NCBI GenBank assembly: GCA_963756875.1
Contig: CAVWPA010000003.1
Span: 608,001-672,000 of the forward strand
Origin: an uncultured Verrucomicrobiae bacterium
GTDB taxonomy: Bacteria > Verrucomicrobiota > Verrucomicrobiia > Chthoniobacterales > UBA10450
Direction of reading: 5' to 3'
Length of the DNA stretch: 64,000 nt
The notes under the pieces were generated by a model. The model did no database searches and was not told the DNA's origin. It worked only from the letters and a program-made list of their open reading frames with translations. Below are positions 6,831 to 20,640 of this stretch, piece after piece (the stretch's first letter is position 1; each line of letters opens with the position of its first letter). Made by a program: the position numbers and the translations under genes.

Positions 6831-7031
6831 ATGTCGAATAAACAGTTTTGGACGAAAACAAACGCAGCCGTGCTAAAGGCAGTCCGATTATCGAAAGGAA
6901 AGGGCGACAGCGCTCTCCGACGGGACTGGAAATTGAAGCAGGTTTCGAGAAGTGGATCGCATTCGCACGTCAGCATCTCGGACGTTCGTACTCTTGGGAC
7001 GGGCCTTTCACGAACGATCTCGACCGAGTAA
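6831..7031 (+). CDS. Small basic ORF overlapping the kinase gene, possible partner or antitoxin
   Basis: ATG directly downstream of the promoter; 66 aa; no recognisable motif. Confidence 0.3.
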   Translation: MSNKQFWTKTNAAVLKAVRLSKGKGDSALRRDWKLKQVSRSGSHSHVSISDVRTLGTGLSRTISTE

Positions 7032-7576
7032 ACGCCATCGATACTGAAACGGCGTTACTCCTCAAGATAGCGCCAGACTGGAGCGCGGAGGCATTCTACT
7101 CAGCTTGCACGGCGGCCAATCCCGACGTGACGAAAGGGTCGGAGCATTATGTAACGCGCTATCAAGACGGACTGTCTCCGCGCGTAGTGAAAGCTTCCAT
7201 CCCAGGGAAGTATGGGCGGCACGAGTATTCTCCGAGTCTGTACCTAAACTCTTGGCGACTGTTTCAACGATTCTTGCCGGCACTTGCGATTCGCGTCCAT
7301 GGCGTCCTCGTGCAGCCGGTAGCAGGGAAAGATACACCGTTGCCAAGCGTAGTCACCAGCATGCAGTACATCGAGGGCGGTCATCCGAAACCCCAGCAGA
7401 TTGCGGCGTACATGAAATCCCGCGGGTGGTTGGAATACACCGACCAAAGTGAAACGCAAGATTACGTTCAGAGACAGTCGCGTCAGATCATAAGGGATGC
7501 GCACCCGGGCAACTGGATTAAGCAGCGCGGAACTGCTGAGTTGATGCCAGTCGACATCAGCATCGAGCAGTTTTGA
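6848..7576 (+). CDS. Atypical Ser/Thr/Tyr kinase, polyvalent-protein (Kinase-PolyVal-like) type
   Basis: GSEHYV loop, VVK lysine, [14 protein letters not shown], catalytic RDAHPGN, PVD; start uncertain. Confidence 0.7.
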
Positions 7577-7595
7577 GGCTCAATGTCCACCACGT

Positions 7596-7708
<113 letters not shown>

Positions 7709-7734
7709 CTTCCGTCCATTCGTCAGCGGAGACT

Positions 7735-7762
7735 TGTCAAGATTTGTTGACTGACCCCAATT
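7735..7762 (+). repeat. Left inverted repeat of the MTase-ParB-HD cassette
   Basis: TGTCAAGATTTGTTGACTGACCCCAATT; its reverse complement matches 11667-11695 with 1 mismatch and 1 extra base. Confidence 0.88.
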
Positions 7763-7789
7763 CCAATTCATTTCGCTCCCATTCGGCAT

Positions 7790-9374
7790 CTAAAGCCCAG
7801 CAGAACTGACGTAATCGATCGCGAACTTTGTATCGGACGCCCGATTGATCCACTGCAAGACGCTTTCGTATCTCCGCAATTTTGGCCGGCCAGTACCGCA
7901 GTGGTACGCGGGGCAAACACACTGTAGCGGTGACAGCCCCTGTAACAGAATTGACGGCAATTCCCTCGAGAACGCCGGCTCGAGGAAATTCAGAGCACGT
8001 AATGTCGCGCCGGTCATCTTGTAACGCGTCAGTAAACATCAGGGTCGCCGCGTAGGGCAACTGTTCAAACGGGATAGATGGGATGCCGTTGCTGCACAGG
8101 GTGTCGCGCGTGTGTTGATCGTGAAACATCATACTCAGTGCGGCGATGATGCATGCCTTGAGTGAAATCTCTGGATCATAAAGCTCGTGCTTGGCTGCTC
8201 TGTCGCGGCGACACCGAGTGATGAGATACAGGCCAGAAATCAAACTATGACCACACCGCCGGCCGTCAAAATATGCTCTTCGGAGCGCAGGGTCGAAACT
8301 AGCGACCACATCATCACCAAAGCCGGCCGGTCGCCACGCGTCGCTGACCCGCGTGAAAAGCTTGACCAAGTCTTCTCTCGCCTCGAGGAACTCGGTGTGC
8401 CACGCGTTGTTAATCGCGTTGAGAACTATGGATGGAACGTCATTTGACTGGTCGCTTCTGTTCTGGCTGCCGATGCTAAAAGCGAAAGTGCGCCAAAAAT
8501 CTTCACCCATGTAACCTGGGTCGTGGAACATGCACGTCAACGACCACAAGCTCTCCCACAAATGCAGCTTAGAAATCCGTTTTGGATCAGCAATATAGCG
8601 GTCGGGCAGTTCGGTTCGGGCTCGATGCTCGAGCATGCCGCCGAGCACTAGGAATCCGTTGAGTAGATTGTTGAAAGTGTGGAAAAAATGATCTCGTGCG
8701 CCTTCGTTTGCGCCAGCACGTTCCCAATCTTGAAGAGTCTGAAACAAGCCGATAGGAAAGAACAAGCGGCGATCTCCGCTTCGGATCTCCCTGGCGAGCG
8801 TGATTAGCAGATCAGATTCATCGTCGTAGGAAGGTAGAGACCGCAGTAGCGGAGTGTAGCGACGGTCTAACAGCTCAAATCGGCGCATTAAATAGGGGCT
8901 GAATCCCCGAACGTTTAACAATGCCTTACGCGTTGCCGCAGGGATGTGGCCACGTTCCAAAGCACCCCGCCGTAACTTGGGCATCGCGTAATCCGGCGGC
9001 CAAACGCGAAGCAGACCCTCCGAGGTCTCGAGAAGCAGTCCGAAGCCGAGCTTGTAACATTCCTCTGCGACCGCTTCCGCGATGTCGGTTGCGGAGACTT
9101 CGGGTGAATCCGTCGCGACGATTACTGCCGAAATCCGTTTCGCCGCTGTGAGTTGCTTGTGCGCACTCCGAACCCAATCAGGAATGCGCGGGAGACCCAG
9201 TGCATAAACAAGGTGATAGTGTCGGCCGTCCGCCAAACAAAGGTCTGGGCCGAAGCTCAATTTTTTCTTTAGCAGCCGCTTTTTATTGATCTCCCCAAAC
9301 GAAATCTCGCGAAGAACCCTGTCGCGACGCAAAGCGGCCTTTATTCCTTGCGCTGTAGCGCGAGTAAATCGCAT
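7790..9374 (-). CDS. HD-superfamily phosphohydrolase with a possible degenerate REase-fold N-terminal domain; apparent frameshift near 7871
   Basis: [41 protein letters not shown]; removing one A gives the C-terminus [28 protein letters not shown] (the uncorrected ORF runs into the IR to 7737). Confidence 0.7.
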
Positions 9375-9383
9375 GAAATCGAT

Positions 9384-10457
9384 TTAGAAGGTTTCTCGCG
9401 AAGCGCGCGCTGCCCGAATGAGCTCGTCTAAGGCCCGGCGAAACTTATCAATCATCTTCTTCTTGGCCGCCGACGAGCCCTTGGCTTCGGTAATGTATCT
9501 CGACTCGTATTGGTCGAGGGTACGCGTAAGCGCGACAATCGCTGCTATGACGCGCTGTGGTTTTGCTGGGCGCTCTTCCAGAAGCTCTGGTAACTGGGTC
9601 GTAATTTCCGCCTTAGCGTCTTCGAATTGAAAATCCTTTCTATTAACCAAATCTTTGAAAAGATTGAGCGCGGTCTTCTTCTTCGAGCCGTCCAGCGCTC
9701 GAGAGAACAGCGGCGACACGCTACGTATCTGTTCTCTACTAGTGAGTGTGCCGGTCTCTATTCCGCCAATAGTCTTGTCCAACGGTACTCGCCGCACCTG
9801 ATTCGCAGTTGTGTCGACGGCCTTGTTGCCATTGAAGTAGTTTGGGAAGGCTTCGACTGCAGGCTCGATAATACTCGCCTCTATGGCCAAGATGTACGAA
9901 TAAACATTCCGCGATGGCTCGCGTTCATCGAAACGAAAGATTTCATCCTTCAATTGCTTCGGCCAGGAGAGCACGTGTACTTTATCTTTTGCCGTAACCA
10001 GTGACATGTTCGTCTCTTCCGCGAGCTTGGCTGCCCATTCCGCTTTTTGTGCAAGCCTGAGGCCTCTATCAAGCTCGGGATAGGCTTCCACGAGCGAACG
10101 ACACTGCGCCATCGGCCCCCACTGCTCGCGGGTCATATGCAGATGAAACATTAGCTTGCGAACATCCGCCGTTACTCCACGCCCCTCCAGAATGTGAACA
10201 GGCACCATGTCCAACGCTAGCTCGCGAGCTGCCCAATACCGTCTCTCCCCATCAACCAGCTCATATTTGATCTCACCAGCTGTCCTGGACAGATCGCGAA
10301 TAACCAAAGGGACGAGGATGCCAACACGATTGATCGAGGCAACGAGTCGCTCGAAACTTTCGTTCCGGTCAATCGCCCCCCTAGGATTGTGGTCGCTAGG
10401 CCTGATTTCTTTCAGGCGGATGCGTTTTACGCGACTTGCGAATTGAGAAGTATCCAT
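9384..10457 (-). CDS. ParB/Srx N-terminal domain protein
   Basis: NPRG, LVASI..VGILVPLVIR, YELVDGERRYWA (intact arginine patch); helical C-terminus; no parA nearby. Confidence 0.88.
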   Translation of the reverse strand: MDTSQFASRVKRIRLKEIRPSDHNPRGAIDRNESFERLVASINRVGILVPLVIRDLSRTAGEIKYELVDGERRYWAARELALDMVPVHILEGRGVTADVRKLMFHLHMTREQWGPMAQCRSLVEAYPELDRGLRLAQKAEWAAKLAEETNMSLVTAKDKVHVLSWPKQLKDEIFRFDEREPSRNVYSYILAIEASIIEPAVEAFPNYFNGNKAVDTTANQVRRVPLDKTIGGIETGTLTSREQIRSVSPLFSRALDGSKKKTALNLFKDLVNRKDFQFEDAKAEITTQLPELLEERPAKPQRVIAAIVALTRTLDQYESRYITEAKGSSAAKKKMIDKFRRALDELIRAARASRETF

Positions 10458-10463
10458 AAGCAG

Positions 10464-11606
10464 TTACCGCTTCGTTGTCATAATCAGGATAGTTTCTGAA
10501 GTGCTGCCTCGGCACGCGCGCCTTACTCGGCGTGCAGTGGGAATTGTGTCCTTGTAGGTTGCACGCACCTGGTATCCACCGATCTCATTCACCGCGATTT
10601 GAGCGAGCGCATGTGCCAAGGGCTCCCCATAGGCAGTGCTCAATACGTCACCGACCACCAACACGCATCGTCCTCCGGGTTTCAAAATTTGCCGCCACAG
10701 AGTCAAACACTTGCGCATGAGCTCGAAAAACTGTGTTTCGGTGGGAGAGACCTGTGCATCAAGTTCGTCTGGATCGTCGACACCGAGAAACCAGAGGCGC
10801 ATGCGATTGTCGCGGCCGTAGTCGAGCTGGCGCATATACGGCGGACTAGTGATTATCGCGTCGACCGGATCCGCGGGGCGAAATAGCTCTGCGTTCCTCA
10901 AAAAGCATTGCCGCTGGATCGAAAAGTCCACGTTTGGGATGCGTTTGAGCGCACGCCCCACCTTCGCTTCGAGACGGCCTGCAACCGCGCGGTACCGATA
11001 CAACTCGGGGAATACGTCGACCGGAAAGCGACTGAGTCGCAAGTAGGGAACAGCGTGACTGCTTGGAAACGACAGAAAACCCGGCCTCTGATGATGCAGA
11101 ATACCGAGAAGGCACGCTAACAAGAATCGTTCGCTGCGCCGCGCTAGCACGGCGCGCCAAGCGAGAATCTCTTGCAATGTTTTCCGATGGAAAAACGCAC
11201 GTATCCATTTCGGCACTACAGATAAATCAATCGATGGCATCGTCCGCACGGCGGCTTCGGCGGCACGCTGCAAACGGTGCAACGCGTCGTCTTGCGAAAT
11301 CAATGGGAAGAGTTTTGCGCGAGTGAGAAGGGATGCGTATGGACTTAGATCATTTGCGATGACGTTGCGGCCGGCAATCCAAGACTCCAACGCGATGGTT
11401 CCGCAACCAGCGAATGGATCGTAGACGCAGTTTCCCGCTCTGGTGCAATGGCGAACGAGAGCATTCGCCATCGTTGATTTAATCTTTCCTATGTATGGCG
11501 ACAACTGGTGGAGAGTCGTCTCCTGATGCACTGCGCTCCCGGCCCAGTCGCAAGTCACACCATTCAGTCGCAGATGGCTATTCCGATTCATGACTACGGC
11601 GGACAT
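10464..11606 (-). CDS. Site-specific DNA amino-methyltransferase, likely N4-cytosine, alpha-type motif order
   Basis: H...PYIGK, motif I DPFAGCGT, NDLSPYA, catalytic IITSPPY, LKPGG. Confidence 0.88.
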   Translation of the reverse strand: MSAVVMNRNSHLRLNGVTCDWAGSAVHQETTLHQLSPYIGKIKSTMANALVRHCTRAGNCVYDPFAGCGTIALESWIAGRNVIANDLSPYASLLTRAKLFPLISQDDALHRLQRAAEAAVRTMPSIDLSVVPKWIRAFFHRKTLQEILAWRAVLARRSERFLLACLLGILHHQRPGFLSFPSSHAVPYLRLSRFPVDVFPELYRYRAVAGRLEAKVGRALKRIPNVDFSIQRQCFLRNAELFRPADPVDAIITSPPYMRQLDYGRDNRMRLWFLGVDDPDELDAQVSPTETQFFELMRKCLTLWRQILKPGGRCVLVVGDVLSTAYGEPLAHALAQIAVNEIGGYQVRATYKDTIPTARRVRRACRGSTSETILIMTTKR

Positions 11607-11666
11607 CCCGGCACAGTATCAACGCGAGATAGATTCGTCGACTTCTTAAAGAAAACGGGGTCAGAC

Positions 11667-11695
11667 AATTGGGGTTCAGGCAACAAATCTTGACA
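11667..11695 (-). repeat. Right inverted repeat of the MTase-ParB-HD cassette
   Basis: AATTGGGGTTCAGGCAACAAATCTTGACA; a partial extra GGGGTCAG lies at 11657. Confidence 0.88.
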
Positions 11696-11908
11696 CCGTG
11701 GGTTCCTGAAGCTTAGCACTCTATCGGCCGCTCACTGATTCACCTTGTCCCCGACAATCATCCGGAGAGCTTCTGGATTTGGCTGACGGAAGCGGCTCCA
11801 GTAAGGATCCAAGGAGCGATCGCCAGAATCTTATCTGATTTTTCCAAATTGTGTTTGGCGCAGCCGCCTTCGTTCAGACTACGGCCAGCCAGGGAGCAAT
11901 CGCGGGGA

Positions 11909-13898
11909 TCAAATCTGGGGAATTCCGAGTCCTCTAAGATAATTGAATGTCGAATCATAAAAAGTAGGGGATCGCGTCGGATCAGCGACTTCGCCAGGCG
12001 GCACGAACACGACCATTCCTTGGCGCGCACGTGTAAGCAAGACGCGGTAAGCATTGCGGAGATACACCCGGTTGTCGGCATTCGCGATGTTGCACCAACG
12101 ATCCCCTCGGAAATCGTGATAATTCCAGTCCGCACCGTTAAAGCGAAAGTCACCGCACCACGCGACGCAGACCCAATCAAGTTCCAATCCTTGCACTTGA
12201 AATTCAGTCGCAGCGTCTTCGAGATAATAACTCGACCGCGTGTCGTCTCTGCCATTCAAAAAATAGTGTACCGGGTCAACTGAGACGCGGATGTCGATTG
12301 CGTGCGGCTTCAGTCGCATCGCTTTTGATGAGGCGACCAAGCCGTAGCGCTCCGTTCCTCGCGCGCGATCGCGAACCCATTGTTTCGCCGCATTCAGATC
12401 ACGCGTGATTGCGATCGGATATCTCGCGGCCAATTCTCCGAATGCGCGCTTCGCCTGTTCTTCGTCGCAATCGAGAAGCGCTTTGACGAATGCAGAAACA
12501 TTTTCCGCGCGAAACGATCGCATGGAGACTGCGAGATGCAGCGCGTCGTCGAACTTGGTGCGCGGACGCTCGCGCACGATCTCCAGGCGCTCGACCGGTC
12601 GCATACTCGCTGTCTGTGAGCCGTGACGAAATGAACATCTCCCATGCAGGAAAACTTCGATTCACTGCTTGGAGCCACGCATCAATACCCGGCTTCACCT
12701 GTATTAATCTCCTGGCCGCCACCAACAAGGCATACGATTACCGCCCAATCCTTGTGTCTATCCATGTATGAGATCAGAAACTCTGGCTCCGAATGAGAGA
12801 ACCCAGCGGCCGTTTCTTCGCGCAGCATGAAGTTGGCGGTCTGCCTAAGATTCCAAGCGCGTTGCGCCTCATCGAAAATAACAACGTGCTCATCCGGCGG
12901 ACCGAGATCGATCAGCGCATCGTCGCGGAAATGGTGAACGTTTTGAATAAACGACTTGATCGCGTTCTCCAACTTTTCCTTTTCGCGCCTTCTCGCCGTG
13001 TTGCTTCCGACGCGCGACTTCGTCACGCGTTAGCGCTTCACGAAGAACGGCAACCAATGGGCCATTGCCAGACAGAAAAACAGCATGAGTTGGCTCGATC
13101 CTCTTCACGCCGCGTCGCAAGATTCAGCCCGACTAAAGTTTTTCCTGCTCCGGGCACGCCAGTCATAAACAAATTCGCTTTAGCGCCCTTTAGCATGAGC
13201 TTCATCGACGAGTTCTTCAATTCGTCGCGAGGTAACGTGCAGATTCTGCGCGCCGGCGTCGAACCGCGCGATCGCTTCGACCGAATGTGCGCATACAGCG
13301 CGCGCGCAGCTTCGATGATCGTGGGCGTCGGATGATACGACGCTCGCGACCACGCTTCTGCATTCGACGGCGATGCCACTAATTCTCGCTAAGCGCAGCG
13401 TCGAGCGCGCTGCGAAAGTGTTCGGGATCGACGACAATCGGCCGGTAAAGTTTGTCGGCGTCTGGCATCAACTCGATCTGAGGACATTCGTTGCTTCTGT
13501 TGGGTCAGAATGGGAATGATTGAAGCATCGTGACTTGCCTCATGAAAATTCTTTAGGTCCAGCCCGTAATCCCAAACCTGATCGATCGCCGCACGATCAA
13601 ACGTTTTCTCGCCGACTTTGAATTCGATTGCGAAGACCACTGGCCCAATCACAAGAACGACGTCGATCCGCCGTCCCATTCGCGGAATGTTGAACTCGAA
13701 GAAGATCGAACCCGCAAAGGCCAATGAGTTGCGGGCGAAGAAACTCGATCTGCGCGAGCCACGCGTCAGCGTTGCGTTGGAATCAAAGTCGAACTCGCAG
13801 AATTAGTTGTAAGCTGGCCCAGACAATTTCGGGGGTCGCGTGGAGCAAAGTCTGCAGTCGAAGCGCCGTACCAGAATCGCAAGAGACGAAGACCGCAT
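11909..13898 (-). pseudogene. DUF2075 (Schlafen group 3-like) helicase with N-terminal PD-(D/E)XK-like domain, multiply frameshifted
   Basis: Fragments in several frames: [62 protein letters not shown]; real decay cannot be told from sequencing error. Confidence 0.8.
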
Positions 13899-14009
13899 CA
13901 ATGTGGTGGTGATTTGTCCTTCCACATCTAAATGCTAGCCACCGCGCTGCGATTCGACGAGAAAAGACTTGGCATTCGCCGCGAACCTGGCCAGGTAATT
14001 ATGCCCATC

Positions 14010-14251
14010 ATGGGCAAAGATTTCATTTCAAACTGGACAGTGTGGATCTCGGACAGGTGCTCGACGGGTTGCGATGTCGGCAACAATCGTGGGCGAATAC
14101 TGCGATTTACCTGCGTGACGAATATTTCCCTGATGATTCGTTCGTATGCGAAGAATGCAGTGACACCAATGAAGCGCAAAAGATCGCAAACATGTATCAG
14201 CGGATCATTACGACAATTGAAAATCAGATCGCCCAACAACGTGGTCAATAG
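14010..14251 (+). CDS. Small acidic hypothetical protein with CEEC motif; apparent -1 error in a T run near 14026
   Basis: Restoring one T gives MGKDFIFKLDSVDLGQVLDGLRCR...FVCEECSD...ENQIAQQRGQ*. Confidence 0.55.
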
Positions 14252-14390
14252 AACCGCGTTCGATCCCGCTGATGTACGTGCGGTCGAGCTCCGCTTTTTC
14301 CGCCAGAGCTTCCTGCGACAGCCCGGCCGCGTCACGGCGGCGGCGAACGTTTAATCCGAATCGGGTGAGAGTGTGGTGTCGATGCGACAT
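14208..14390 (-). pseudogene. Truncated XRE HTH protein, R-M controller (C protein)-like
   Basis: FGLNVRRRR..GLSQEALAEKAELDRTYISGIERG; homology stops near 14252, at the stop codon of the convergent ORF. Confidence 0.75.
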
Positions 14391-14407
14391 GCACACACTT
14401 CACCTGA

Positions 14408-14442
14408 ATGTTGCCTTTCAATCCACGGACTATAAGTCACAT
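14408..14442 (-). promoter_or_regulatory. C-box operator of an R-M controller gene
   Basis: Minus strand ATGTGACTTATAGTCCGTGGATTGAAAGGCAACAT: GACT-TAT-AGTC box, 17 nt upstream of the HTH ATG. Confidence 0.8.
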
Positions 14443-14761
14443 CAATATCGCTCGAAGACGGAGCGACAAAGCTTGTTGCCCCTGCGGTTCTTTGCCGCCC
14501 CGAAGTTTATTCCTTTCTGGAGCGCAGACTGACTGAACAGTGACAAGTGACCCGCCACGGCGGGTTCGTCTGAACGGGAACATGTGACCCGCCTACGCGA
14601 ATACTACGGCGCGGCAAGCGAGTGGCGAGAGGGCACATAGCTCATGATGTCGTCGATTTCCACAATATTGATCTTGAATTTCGCCTATATCGGGGAGGTC
14701 GAGCCCAGTCAGGCCGATTTATTCCTTGCATGCATGGCACGCACCGGGCTTACTTAGGGGC

Positions 14762-14929
14762 ATGGTCGCCATAATCGCCAAGCGTAGCGTTGCAGAAGTC
14801 CGAAAGGAAGTCCGAGCCATCAGGAAAGCCGGGGACGAAATCAACAAGTCGGCGAAATCAGCGCGCGCATTTCTGCGCAAAAACGGCTTCATTACCAAGG
14901 ACAATAAAGTCAGCAGGCAATATCGGTAG
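14762..14929 (+). CDS. Small basic protein, putative antitoxin
   Basis: 55 aa, ends 8 bp before the ART-like gene; SARAFLRKNGFITKDNKVSRQYR. Confidence 0.6.
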   Translation: MVAIIAKRSVAEVRKEVRAIRKAGDEINKSAKSARAFLRKNGFITKDNKVSRQYR

Positions 14930-14937
14930 CCCGGTCA

Positions 14938-15534
14938 ATGTTTGCCACATCGTTCGTTCTTGGCTATCACGGCTGCGAACGAAAAGTTGGTGAGACCATT
15001 CTGGCCGGCAAAGACCACGTCACGCTTAGCGAGAACGTCTACGATTGGCTCGGCCACGGCGCGTATTTTTGGGAGAACAGCGCAAAACGCGCGAAGGATT
15101 GGGCCGACTTTCTAACGAAACACCCGCCGGAACCGGATAAGAAAATAACCGATCCTTTCGTCGTCGGTGCGATCATTGATCTCGGCGATTGTCTCGATCT
15201 GACCGACGCAGGCTCACTGGAGATCATTCGCGCTGGTTACGATGAGTTCCGCCGAACCATGGAGCAGGCTGGTGCTCCCATGCCGAAAAATGAGCCGGCA
15301 CTCCGCGGCGACGTCGATCTTGTGAAACGCCACCTCGATTGTGCTGTAGTTAATTTTGTCCATCTGCTGCGTGAACGAGAGAAGAATCCGTTTGACACAG
15401 TCCGCGGAATTTTCACCGAAGGTGGTGAGCTCTATCCCGGCGCAAAGATCATGGCTAAAACGCATGTGCAGGTATGCGTTCGCAATCCCAAGAAGAGCAT
15501 CAAAGGCTATTTTCGCCCTCTGGCCCAGAACTAG
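14938..15534 (+). CDS. ADP-ribosyltransferase-fold-like protein, putative toxin
   Basis: GYHG, DWLGHGAYFWE..RA..WA, terminal HVQVCVRN; H-Y-Q pattern of the HYE ART fold (inference). Confidence 0.6.
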   Translation: MFATSFVLGYHGCERKVGETILAGKDHVTLSENVYDWLGHGAYFWENSAKRAKDWADFLTKHPPEPDKKITDPFVVGAIIDLGDCLDLTDAGSLEIIRAGYDEFRRTMEQAGAPMPKNEPALRGDVDLVKRHLDCAVVNFVHLLREREKNPFDTVRGIFTEGGELYPGAKIMAKTHVQVCVRNPKKSIKGYFRPLAQN

Positions 15535-19584: not shown

Positions 19585-20640
19585 TCAGCGACCGTATTTC
19601 TGGACCAGGTGGTCGATGTAGGCGCTGTATTTCTCGGCGAGCGGGGCGCTTTCGATGAAGAGAATGTTCTCGGCGTTGAATTCGGCGCTCCGGGAGAAGT
19701 TATAGGAGCCGGTGATCACGGTGTCGTCGATTATCAGAACTTTGTTGTGCATGAAATCGTGGTGCCCGGTCGGCGTGTACGGGGTCGAGTTTTTTCCAAC
19801 CAGGCCCGCGCGCGTGATGATCTCTTTTAACGCGCCGATCTTCCAACGGTTCGACGGCACTTCCTGCCACTGCGGGTACACCTCGGCCATTTGCGTGCGA
19901 TCGTAGATCCCATCAATCGTGACCCGGCCCGCGCGCAACAAATTAAGCAGCCCGCCGATGAGCGTGCCGGAGTTGATTAACAAGCTACAGATGCGGACAC
20001 GATGCTGTGCCGCCCGAACGCGTTTCGAGATTTCGGTATCGATTTCGTACCCGCAGCCCGGCGAAAACATGACGCGCGTTTCGGCCGGTTGACCGGAATA
20101 GATCAGCGACACGGGCTCGGTATGAATCTGGCCGGTGTTATCGAAGTTTTCTTTTTCCCAAAGCTCTTCGAACTCTTCCGCGTAGTAACCGGCCAGCGGC
20201 GCTGAATCGATCTCGACGATGTTGTTCTCCATCAGAGTAAATGCGTCGTCGGTCATGTTGGTCGAGCCGGTCCAGATCGATTGGCGATCGCGCAGGATGA
20301 ATTTGCTGTGCATCAGTTTCATGCCGGCAATGGGACGCGAGGGATAGCCCAACGATTGGACAAAGGCGCTGGTGCCGGACGGGGCCGGGTCCTGACCGCC
20401 GGCGACATTTGGTTGAATCGGTTTGTCGCCGTCGTAGCAGAAACGGATCCGCACGCCGGCGTCCGCGCGTTCGCGCAACGCGGAGCTTAACGATGTTTTC
20501 AACGGATCGCTGAACCGCATGTCGTAAACGGCAATATCGAGAGATTCTTTCGCGGCGCGTATAAACGCGGTCAGCCGCGCCATGATGGCGTCGGCGGATT
20601 GTTCGCCCTGAGCGAGAAAGAAAACCGAAAGAGTATCCAC
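19585..20640 (-). CDS. Phospholipase D-like protein with two HKD motifs
   Basis: MHSKFILRD..WTGSTN and MHNKVLIID..TGSYNFS. Confidence 0.9.
   Translation of the reverse strand: MDTLSVFFLAQGEQSADAIMARLTAFIRAAKESLDIAVYDMRFSDPLKTSLSSALRERADAGVRIRFCYDGDKPIQPNVAGGQDPAPSGTSAFVQSLGYPSRPIAGMKLMHSKFILRDRQSIWTGSTNMTDDAFTLMENNIVEIDSAPLAGYYAEEFEELWEKENFDNTGQIHTEPVSLIYSGQPAETRVMFSPGCGYEIDTEISKRVRAAQHRVRICSLLINSGTLIGGLLNLLRAGRVTIDGIYDRTQMAEVYPQWQEVPSNRWKIGALKEIITRAGLVGKNSTPYTPTGHHDFMHNKVLIIDDTVITGSYNFSRSAEFNAENILFIESAPLAEKYSAYIDHLVQKYGR

Follow-up and report, generated by a model that had tools for sequence, protein, structure and literature searches.

What is a ParB-type gene doing between a DNA methyltransferase gene and a gene whose product belongs to no named family, and with no partition ATPase gene beside it? 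The question is raised by a stretch of 64,000 nucleotides from an uncultured Verrucomicrobiae bacterium (GenBank assembly GCA_963756875.1, contig CAVWPA010000003.1, positions 608,001 to 672,000), referred to below as the window, in which three minus-strand open reading frames (ORFs) follow one another in the order methyltransferase (MTase), ParB protein and third gene (Table 1). The product of the third gene is called the HD protein here, after its HD-superfamily domain, which follows an N-terminal domain with a restriction-endonuclease fold (the nuclease-fold domain). The ORFs are separated by 6 bp (MTase/ParB, 10458-10463) and 9 bp (ParB/third gene, 9375-9383), and the ORF list thereby bears out the spacing and co-orientation reported in an earlier reading of the DNA (the original prediction), which had proposed a candidate undescribed defence system at 7735..11695. 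The trio does lie within these limits, although the end at 11695 overshoots the start codon of the MTase by approximately 90 bp. The motifs which that reading quoted for the three proteins are all found in the translations. We infer, at about even odds (a probability of roughly 0.5), that the trio is a copy of an undescribed, horizontally mobile, restriction-modification-like (R-M-like) cassette.

The evidence begins with the recurrence of the gene order. A genome scan, covering one genome per GTDB species and with loci compared by tblastn and local hidden Markov models, revealed 13 loci (L001-L013) in metagenome-assembled genomes of Acidobacteriota, Verrucomicrobiota and Bacteroidota. MTase, ParB and HD genes occur in the same order and on the same strand in 11 of the 13 with an MTase of the window type (P0001), and in 12 when L013 is counted; in this locus a canonical PF01555 (DPPF) MTase occupies the same slot, and the HD protein is nested beside that of L005 in the tree. 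L003 is a remnant without the MTase, in which only truncated ParB and HD genes are left. The MTase, ParB and HD families are the only ones common to the 13 loci, among which no ParA-type gene is shared and the flanks differ every time. The search for a conserved neighbourhood, which the original prediction had offered as a check, thus finds the trio in 12 of 13 genome loci of three phyla. Chance does not account for the motifs: all 38 aligned relatives share the HD-type residues without change, and the order of the genes is found again in other genomes.

A sister clade, made up of 80 metagenome loci of distant, approximately 500-residue HD relatives taken from the profile search, reveals which part of the cassette is constant. 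Of the 64 loci in which at least 600 bp precede the HD gene, 62 have a ParB_N gene immediately in front of it. The downstream partner was scored in the 61 loci with at least 600 bp on that side: 45 carry an overlapping gene of approximately 367 codons with weak B12-binding and radical SAM Pfam matches, 5 carry such a radical SAM-like gene in convergent orientation, 3 (L015-L017) have a P0001-like SPPY MTase, and 8 have neither. These eight include L021, where a D12 Dam-class MTase (7033-7926; PADLOC PD-Lambda-5_B, 8.1e-75) lies downstream of ParB and HD proteins that match no PD-Lambda-5 model, as well as L082 and L089, with PF01555 MTases divergently upstream. In L081 and L093, which fall outside the 61, a PF01555 (DPPF) MTase directly precedes the ParB gene. 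The ordinary DNA MTases found in the slot belong to four sequence families (SPPY type, two DPPF types and Dam class). The approximately 367-residue family, which always sits downstream of ParB-HD in the slot held by DNA MTases in other cassettes, possesses an invariant CxxxCxxC motif (33/33; RGCxxxCxFC), occurs among loci L018-L094 (for example L042:2830-3930 and L025:7413-8519) and matches no NCBIfam or PADLOC model.

A quick maximum-likelihood tree (IQ-TREE) of 65 HD proteins, in which L021, L044, L059 and L092 sit on long, unsure branches, recovers the window clade with a support of 100; its 11 rows all have the MTase upstream. A wider group of 19 rows mixes MTase-downstream, Dam-class and radical SAM forms. 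Of the other 46 rows, L092 is a locus for which no partner was found, and the rest represent radical SAM forms or contig ends. Since ParB-HD is constant across clades while the enzyme is swapped, the conserved core consists of these two proteins: the ParB and nuclease-fold/HD proteins form a near-obligate pair with an exchangeable DNA-modifying enzyme. The sister cassettes share both families with the window, whereas the window form carries an ordinary DNA MTase, upstream, instead of the radical SAM enzyme. The original prediction had recognized the cassette and missed the ParB-HD core, the exchangeable enzyme (radical SAM included) and a frameshift described below. As a separate observation, a third cassette form (L054, L070, L074, L077, L081, L082, L086, L089 and L093) encodes a short HD protein of approximately 370-395 residues, apparently without most of the nuclease-fold N-domain.

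The distribution is rare, patchy and indicative of horizontal mobility. The cassette was found in none of 40 relatives (24 from the same family) and none of 400 genomes sampled across the phylum, the source genome itself excepted, and relatives of the HD protein are missing from PLSDB (72,556 plasmid records), INPHARED (50,697 phage records) and the viral contigs of IMG/VR. So far the family is confined to uncultured bacteria of soil and sediment. Pfam analysis of the 21 neighbouring ORFs (window 1-22862) detected no ParA-type or CbiA-type ATPase and no recognized restriction endonuclease, in line with what had been stated from the sequence; nor were integrase or phage genes seen beside the trio in the scan of neighbouring ORFs, or tRNA genes in the first 30 kb of the window. 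Fusions and neighbourhoods of ParB with MTases are common in phages and plasmids according to the available part of a survey of ParB folds (PMC12704722), and one could regard the trio as what is left of the maintenance region of a plasmid, phage or integrative and conjugative element, in which a ParB gene for partition or regulation is accompanied by an orphan methylase with an anti-restriction role and by a passenger. The plasmid, phage and IMG/VR results for the HD protein, the lack of ParA, integrase, tRNA and phage genes beside the trio, and flanks which change from locus to locus render this explanation very improbable.

The MTase of the window is characterized by DPFAGCGT (motif I, binding S-adenosylmethionine, residues 63-70) and TSPPY (catalytic motif IV, residues 252-256), the reverse of the order in the Pfam PF01555 profile, and hence a permuted arrangement. 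Pfam matches are N6_N4_Mtase PF01555 (2.1e-12) and PF01170 (3.9e-09), and PADLOC yields the generic MTase_II model PDLC03325 (9.1e-25) together with a weak match to mad2 (1.7e-07). SPPY is retained in 10 of 10 aligned family members and also in L016 and L017, in agreement with the earlier assignment of the enzyme to the SPPY type, and it is probably an N4-cytosine methyltransferase. The P0001-type enzymes fall into two subgroups, with approximately 55-70% identity within and 40-46% between them, and these are discordant with the ParB/HD tree: in ParB and HD, L005 clusters with L006-L009 and L013, yet its MTase is of the other subgroup. The earlier proposal that the MTase marks self DNA is consistent with the exchange for other DNA MTase families in the slot.

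The ParB protein gives a ParB_N Pfam match of 5.5e-14. The NCBIfam models Noc (1.8e-13) and parB_part (4.6e-13) are also matched, far under their equivalog cut-offs (Noc 50 bits vs 315). Its DGERR box lies at residues 69-73, and N24, R26, D69, G70, R72 and R73, which correspond to the NPR and DGERRxxAA boxes, are invariant in 40 of 40 sequences. The AlphaFold2 model (predicted local distance difference test [pLDDT] score 90.1) has as its top Foldseek matches Noc (7nfu, 1.7e-07), ParB-CDP (6sdk) and KorB-CTP (8qa8), along with ParB-CTPgammaS, over 196-289 alignment columns. VIA-align returned KorB-CTP at Z 11.6, PadC at 10.2 and the N-domain of pNOB8 ParB at 10.6 over 212 residues. From the boxes and the fold matches to Noc, ParB and KorB it follows that the full architecture of a nucleotide-gated DNA clamp is present, beyond an Srx-like fold. 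As in the ParB-CTPase clamps (ParB/Spo0J, Noc and KorB), an N-domain binding nucleoside triphosphates (NTPs), with NPR and GERRxxAA, is followed by a helix-turn-helix (HTH)-type domain and a C-terminal helix; unlike these, the window protein has neither ParA nor a partition context, and its partner is an HD protein. Clamp behavior is predicted for it from the model, in which the long terminal helix, by itself, suggests dimerization. Which NTP a ParB fold binds is currently unpredictable from sequence or from AlphaFold3 models (PMC12704722, in the part available). Measured against ParABS partition systems, the window ParB has the GERR box and lacks the adjacent ParA.

The resemblance to KorB opens a different reading of the ParB gene, namely that the trio is a Type II-like R-M pair (MTase and HD nuclease) in which ParB is only a repressor of the KorB or C-protein kind, timing or limiting expression of the HD gene without any sensing of foreign DNA. 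KorB is a ParB-CTPase clamp which represses transcription (PMC11790492, in the part available), the ParB model is nearest to Noc, ParB and KorB with the HTH domain included, and the ParB gene always lies directly before the HD gene. We consider this reading unlikely: although the modification enzyme changes, ParB persists in 62 of 64 loci whose cassettes are very divergent, which would not be expected of a mere regulator; its NTP-binding box does not vary (40/40); and no palindrome of the operator type was conspicuous in the window cassette or its upstream region. The same sequence contains no sigma-70-like sites, and its terminator-like matches are approximately as numerous as expected from shuffled sequence.

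The HD protein is the least familiar of the three. It has no Pfam or NCBIfam family at E<=1, the Pfam HD models and restriction-endonuclease families included, and a search of PDB sequences with the family profile returned nothing at E<=10. Its family comprises 120 clusters at 90% identity, which have no Pfam domain and no functional name ("hypothetical protein" where named at all); in 1.84 billion proteins, clustered at 50%, a 38-member profile collected 416 representatives at E<=1e-3 and 72 at E<=1e-30. The alignment-based AlphaFold2 model (pLDDT 87.4; predicted template modelling score 0.87) found nothing at E<=1e-3 when submitted whole to Foldseek, the weak top rows being PPX/GppA and phosphodiesterases (PDEs). 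For the HD region (residues ~190-528), VIA-align against 48,161 chains gave GppA (6pbz, Z 11.2), PPX (3rf0, 11.1) and YhaM (9h3f, 10.7), followed lower down by PDE7A (9.9), HD-GYP (4r8z, 7.4) and SAMHD1 (7ujn, 7.3; SAMHD1 entries 7.3-6.5), values to be read knowing that helical folds can reach middling Z by chance. The assignment was accepted because all of the top rows are HD-superfamily entries and the ligand residues fit.

These residues lie in the motifs RDHFFH (227-232), FHDPGY (283-288), GHS (375-377), MFHD (416-419) and DALQDDRR (449-456). H229, H232, H284-D285, H376 and H418-D419 are identical in all 38 relatives, and D449, D453 and D454 in 37, 36 and 37, respectively. In the distant subfamily A2 (~500 residues, 31 sequences) H223, H226, H271-D272, H371, H413, D444 and R451 are invariant. 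The fold and the H...HD...H...HD...D set are those of the HD-superfamily phosphohydrolases (the C-domains of GppA/PPX, YhaM, PDEs, HD-GYP and SAMHD1), but those families are not characterized by a fused nuclease fold or a ParB partner, and the window family matches no curated HD sequence model. For a homologue (P0030), none of the clusters retrieved from the ESM Atlas had a name; in one of them 16% of the members carried PF01966, and the structure rows indicated an Mrr_cat-like fold, both with scores under the bar of the tool.

VIA-align matches of the N-terminal domain (residues 1-130) were to PaqCI (8em1, Z 8.1, root-mean-square deviation 3.3 over 119 aligned residues), SdaI (2ixs, 7.4), a NucS-type repair nuclease (2vld, 7.0) and AF1548 (1y88, 6.8). 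In the 38-sequence alignment an acidic residue (D/E) occupies position 44 in 25 members and E116 is found in 31, while K118, the lysine of the (D/E)xK motif, is present in one. The earlier description of a restriction-endonuclease fold without this lysine, joined to an HD domain, is thereby upheld. No other part of the cassette evolves as fast as this domain, whose pairwise identities are 21-65% as against 36-72% for the HD part. Given the invariant HD ligands and the degraded (D/E)xK, the HD center is the likely catalytic site, and the HD domain is, from its conserved residues, likely catalytic; the nuclease-fold domain is probably a non-catalytic module for binding DNA or a partner. Inactive restriction-endonuclease folds are known to serve as DNA binders (PMC12065111, in the part available).

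What the HD center acts upon is the point at which the present reading and the original prediction part. In the latter, DNA that is unmethylated or has lost its methylation would be sensed by the ParB protein and the inactive nuclease fold, and the HD domain would be the effector, HD domains being known as nucleotide-depleting anti-phage effectors. Spelled out as an abortive-infection scheme, the HD domain would deplete nucleotides or destroy a nucleotide signal, and nucleic acid would be left uncut. The best structural matches (GppA/PPX C-domains, cyclic-nucleotide phosphodiesterases, HD-GYP and SpoT) do act on nucleotides, SAMHD1 is matched at Z 7.3, and ParB-fold proteins bind NTPs (PMC12704722, in the part available). 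Yet the SAMHD1-type matches rank under the GppA/PPX, YhaM and PDE rows (Z 9-11), the HD domain is fused to the fold of a DNA enzyme, neither a dGTPase nor any other effector model of PADLOC matches the HD protein, and the exchange of one DNA MTase for another indicates that DNA is what the cassette acts on. A nucleotide-depleting effector is accordingly not favored, and we judge abortive infection of this kind quite unlikely.

The R-M-like reading would operate as follows. The MTase would mark the DNA of the host. ParB would load onto unmarked incoming DNA through its HTH domain, either unaided or with specificity provided by the MTase or by the nuclease-fold domain, and would close as an NTP-gated clamp, which then recruits or licenses the HD protein. 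The HD center would cut or degrade the DNA, with the nuclease-fold domain holding the HD protein on it. The exchange of enzymes, the patchiness across phyla, the variable flanks, the fast evolution of the domain with a DNA-enzyme fold and the HD genes that have so often decayed all fit such a cassette.

Some of the same observations could be accommodated by a module without an immune function, in which ParB and the HD protein help to install, read, edit or remove a base modification produced by the MTase or the radical SAM enzyme. The ParB-superfamily proteins DpdB and DndB assist or regulate DNA modification inside modification machineries (PMC12839542 and PMC10853773, in the parts available), many sister-clade copies are surrounded by housekeeping genes, and the flanking genes have only a weak link to PADLOC models. 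Ordinary N6/N4 DNA MTases nevertheless work without a helper, and at least three unrelated MTase families plus a radical SAM family in one slot are hard to fit to a single biosynthetic pathway. Together with the patchy cross-phylum distribution and the frequent decay of copies, this makes a non-immune module improbable.

Comparison with described systems indicates what is new. With Type II R-M systems the window shares an MTase possessing motif I and a (D/N/S)PP(Y/F) motif IV; the endonuclease with an intact PD-(D/E)XK-type motif is absent, the fold being present and the lysine found in 1 of 38. Classical R-M systems (Type II/III logic), BREX, DISARM and MADS resemble the cassette in combining, in one operon, an MTase with nuclease- or phosphoesterase-fold proteins, and in being selfish and horizontally mobile with an exchangeable MTase. 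None of their companion proteins (PglZ/BrxC, DrmA/B, mad1-8) was matched in the trio by PADLOC v2.0.0, the MTase giving generic matches only; BrxA on the HD protein (0.0015) and MTase_II on ParB (1.2e-05) were taken as spurious. The partners here are a GERR-type ParB and an HD protein, a pair combined in no named system in PADLOC v2.0.0 or the literature. PADLOC has no model for either of these two proteins, in line with the earlier remark that the trio was not recognized among named defence systems.

Menshen (NsnABC), GmrSD, SspE, DndB and DpdB provide a closer parallel, insofar as a DNA sensor of the ParB superfamily which binds NTPs hands over to an effector, as is proposed here. These employ the DUF262 (DGxQR) or DndB branch, whereas the window protein is of the GERR clamp branch (DGERR). 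Menshen consists of a ParB-DUF262 (DGxQR) sensor, the ABC ATPase NsnB and the inPIN-nuclease NsnC (PMC12065111, in the part available); the trio lacks an ATPase gene, and no PADLOC Menshen model matches any of its three proteins. Models of GmrSD-, SspE-, DndB- and DpdB-type systems do not match ParB or the HD protein, and tRNA-guanine transglycosylase (DpdA) and DndACDE are missing among the neighbouring ORFs by Pfam and PADLOC, the rest of the genome not having been searched for them. A full-text literature search, the scope of which did not extend to subscription journals and supplements, encountered no description of a system combining ParB_N, HD and MTase or radical SAM proteins, and the ParB-fold survey, in its available part, covers domain fusions and not the ParB-HD-MTase neighbourhood (PMC12704722). 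The partner proteins and their combination are new, and the modification-based self/non-self logic is of a known kind.

The copy in the window does not appear to be intact. The HD protein departs from all of its relatives after residue 501 ("...WPAKIAE"), and the last 44 or so codons are out of the family frame. Read in the other frame, positions 7870-7790 encode 26 residues in agreement with the family consensus, and the displaced tail is returned as a second match, in another frame, when the genome is searched with profile A1 (positions 502-530, E 1.2e-05). As the conserved tail is open in the other frame one base on, there is one extra base at ~7871 and thus a +1 frameshift, whose origin may lie in mutation or in an error of the assembly. 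The ORF described earlier, at about 530 residues, exists, and it reaches 545 residues only because the frameshift replaces the family C-terminus.

Directly upstream of the MTase gene is a pseudogene of PDC-S41, a PADLOC candidate for single-gene defence (DUF2075/Schlafen group 3 helicase, profile of 657 residues). It is broken into at least three ORF pieces covering profile positions 58-159, 293-395 and 431-652, and the breaks look real because long neighbouring genes are intact. Taken together, the HD-gene frameshift and the adjoining shattered PDC-S41 suggest that the window copy may be decaying. The G+C content is 52-56% over window positions 7001-15000 and 57-61% in most flanking kilobases, which is consistent with acquisition of the trio and the PDC-S41 remnant as an island. 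Elsewhere in the family, the three ORFs are unbroken in L008 and L009, L010 (450-8095) has approximately 1.3 kb inserted between the MTase and ParB genes and two HD gene fragments, and in L011 (6893-8553) the HD gene is split into two ORFs.

Several observations weigh against the R-M-like cassette. The 3' frameshift in the HD gene means that the copy in the window may be partly disabled, and L003, L010 and L011 are broken as well, although decay of the HD gene has also been counted above as fitting. The link to defence islands is weak: 7 of 74 ORFs in the flanks of L001-L013 match any PADLOC model (E<=1e-5), several of these matches being generic, and many sister-clade copies lie amid enolase, alanine racemase, RpoD, MetK and PntAB genes. 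On the favorable side, some defence neighbours do occur: the PDC-S41 pseudogene in the window, a fragment of HEC-06/Orf5 in L013 and, near copies of the sister clade, Mrr, TIR, HNH and Cas1 genes. A change of MTase subgroup leaves no signal in the divergence of the ParB and HD protein domains (Spearman 0.23-0.50; the pair L005-L006 behaves like L006-L007). As exchange of the MTase brings no extra ParB/HD divergence, a reading of the MTase target by ParB or the nuclease fold is unsupported, and the modification enzyme is a more likely source of any sequence specificity than ParB, in the manner of Type I and Type III systems. HD domains also hydrolyze nucleotides, so the nuclease activity assigned to the HD center is inferred. 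Proteins of 955-2725 residues, searched for fused HD forms, include no ParB-HD or MTase-HD fusion, which counts as weak evidence. Finally, complex prediction for ParB and the HD protein scored 0.00, a value which neither supports nor contradicts binding.

Table 1. Positions of the cassette genes, their domains and nearby features in the window.
Feature	Position	Strand	Description
DNA methyltransferase	10464..11606	-	380 aa; PF01555 and PADLOC MTase_II; motif I before motif IV
ParB-type nucleotide-switch protein	9384..10457	-	357 aa; ParB/Srx N-domain, central helical (HTH-type) domain, long C-terminal helix
Third gene as read in the window	7737..9374	-	545 aa; nuclease-fold N-domain, HD-superfamily domain, small C-terminal domain
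Restriction-endonuclease-fold N-domain of the third protein	8970..9374	-	Residues ~1-135; without the (D/E)xK lysine
HD-superfamily metal-hydrolase domain	7995..8807	-	Residues ~190-460; H229/H232, H284-D285, H376, H418-D419, D449/D453-D454
Frameshift site and displaced, open conserved C-terminal segment	7790..7871	-	Extra base at ~7871; own stop at 7790-7792
PDC-S41 remnant	11909..13724	-	At least three ORF pieces
ACTTTCT tandem repeat	7597..7708		16 copies, 89% matches
Two-domain PLD-like protein	19585..20640	-	PLDc_2, 4e-34

Two other features of the window were recorded. A tandem repeat of the heptamer ACTTTCT, with a perfect period, lies approximately 30 bp downstream of the stop codon of the HD ORF; a 28-nt stretch of it has one further occurrence in the genome, on contig C2 near position 167252. 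The two-domain protein resembling phospholipase D (PLD) gives weak PADLOC matches to DrmC (1.7e-09) and MkoB (7.5e-08), and may be either an enzyme of the cardiolipin-synthase type or a PLD with nuclease character.

If the R-M-like reading is true, the cassette is a restriction-modification-like system built from parts never before seen together. It is possible, though tentative, that it represents a new class of modification-dependent immunity, in which an NTP-gated ParB sliding clamp would be the sensor or transducer of unmarked DNA, an HD-domain enzyme kept on the DNA by a dead nuclease fold would be the effector, and the sister cassettes would mark self by means of a radical SAM enzyme. 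The ParB-CTPase switch, whose established roles are in chromosome segregation, nucleoid occlusion and the silencing of plasmid genes, would gain a role in discriminating self from foreign DNA. As the family is wholly unannotated, standard defence finders miss the cassette. The interchange of MTases and a B12-type radical SAM enzyme in one slot is a lead that this radical SAM family may modify DNA. Under the new-class reading, radical SAM chemistry would in the sister cassettes serve for the first time to mark self DNA in an R-M-like system.

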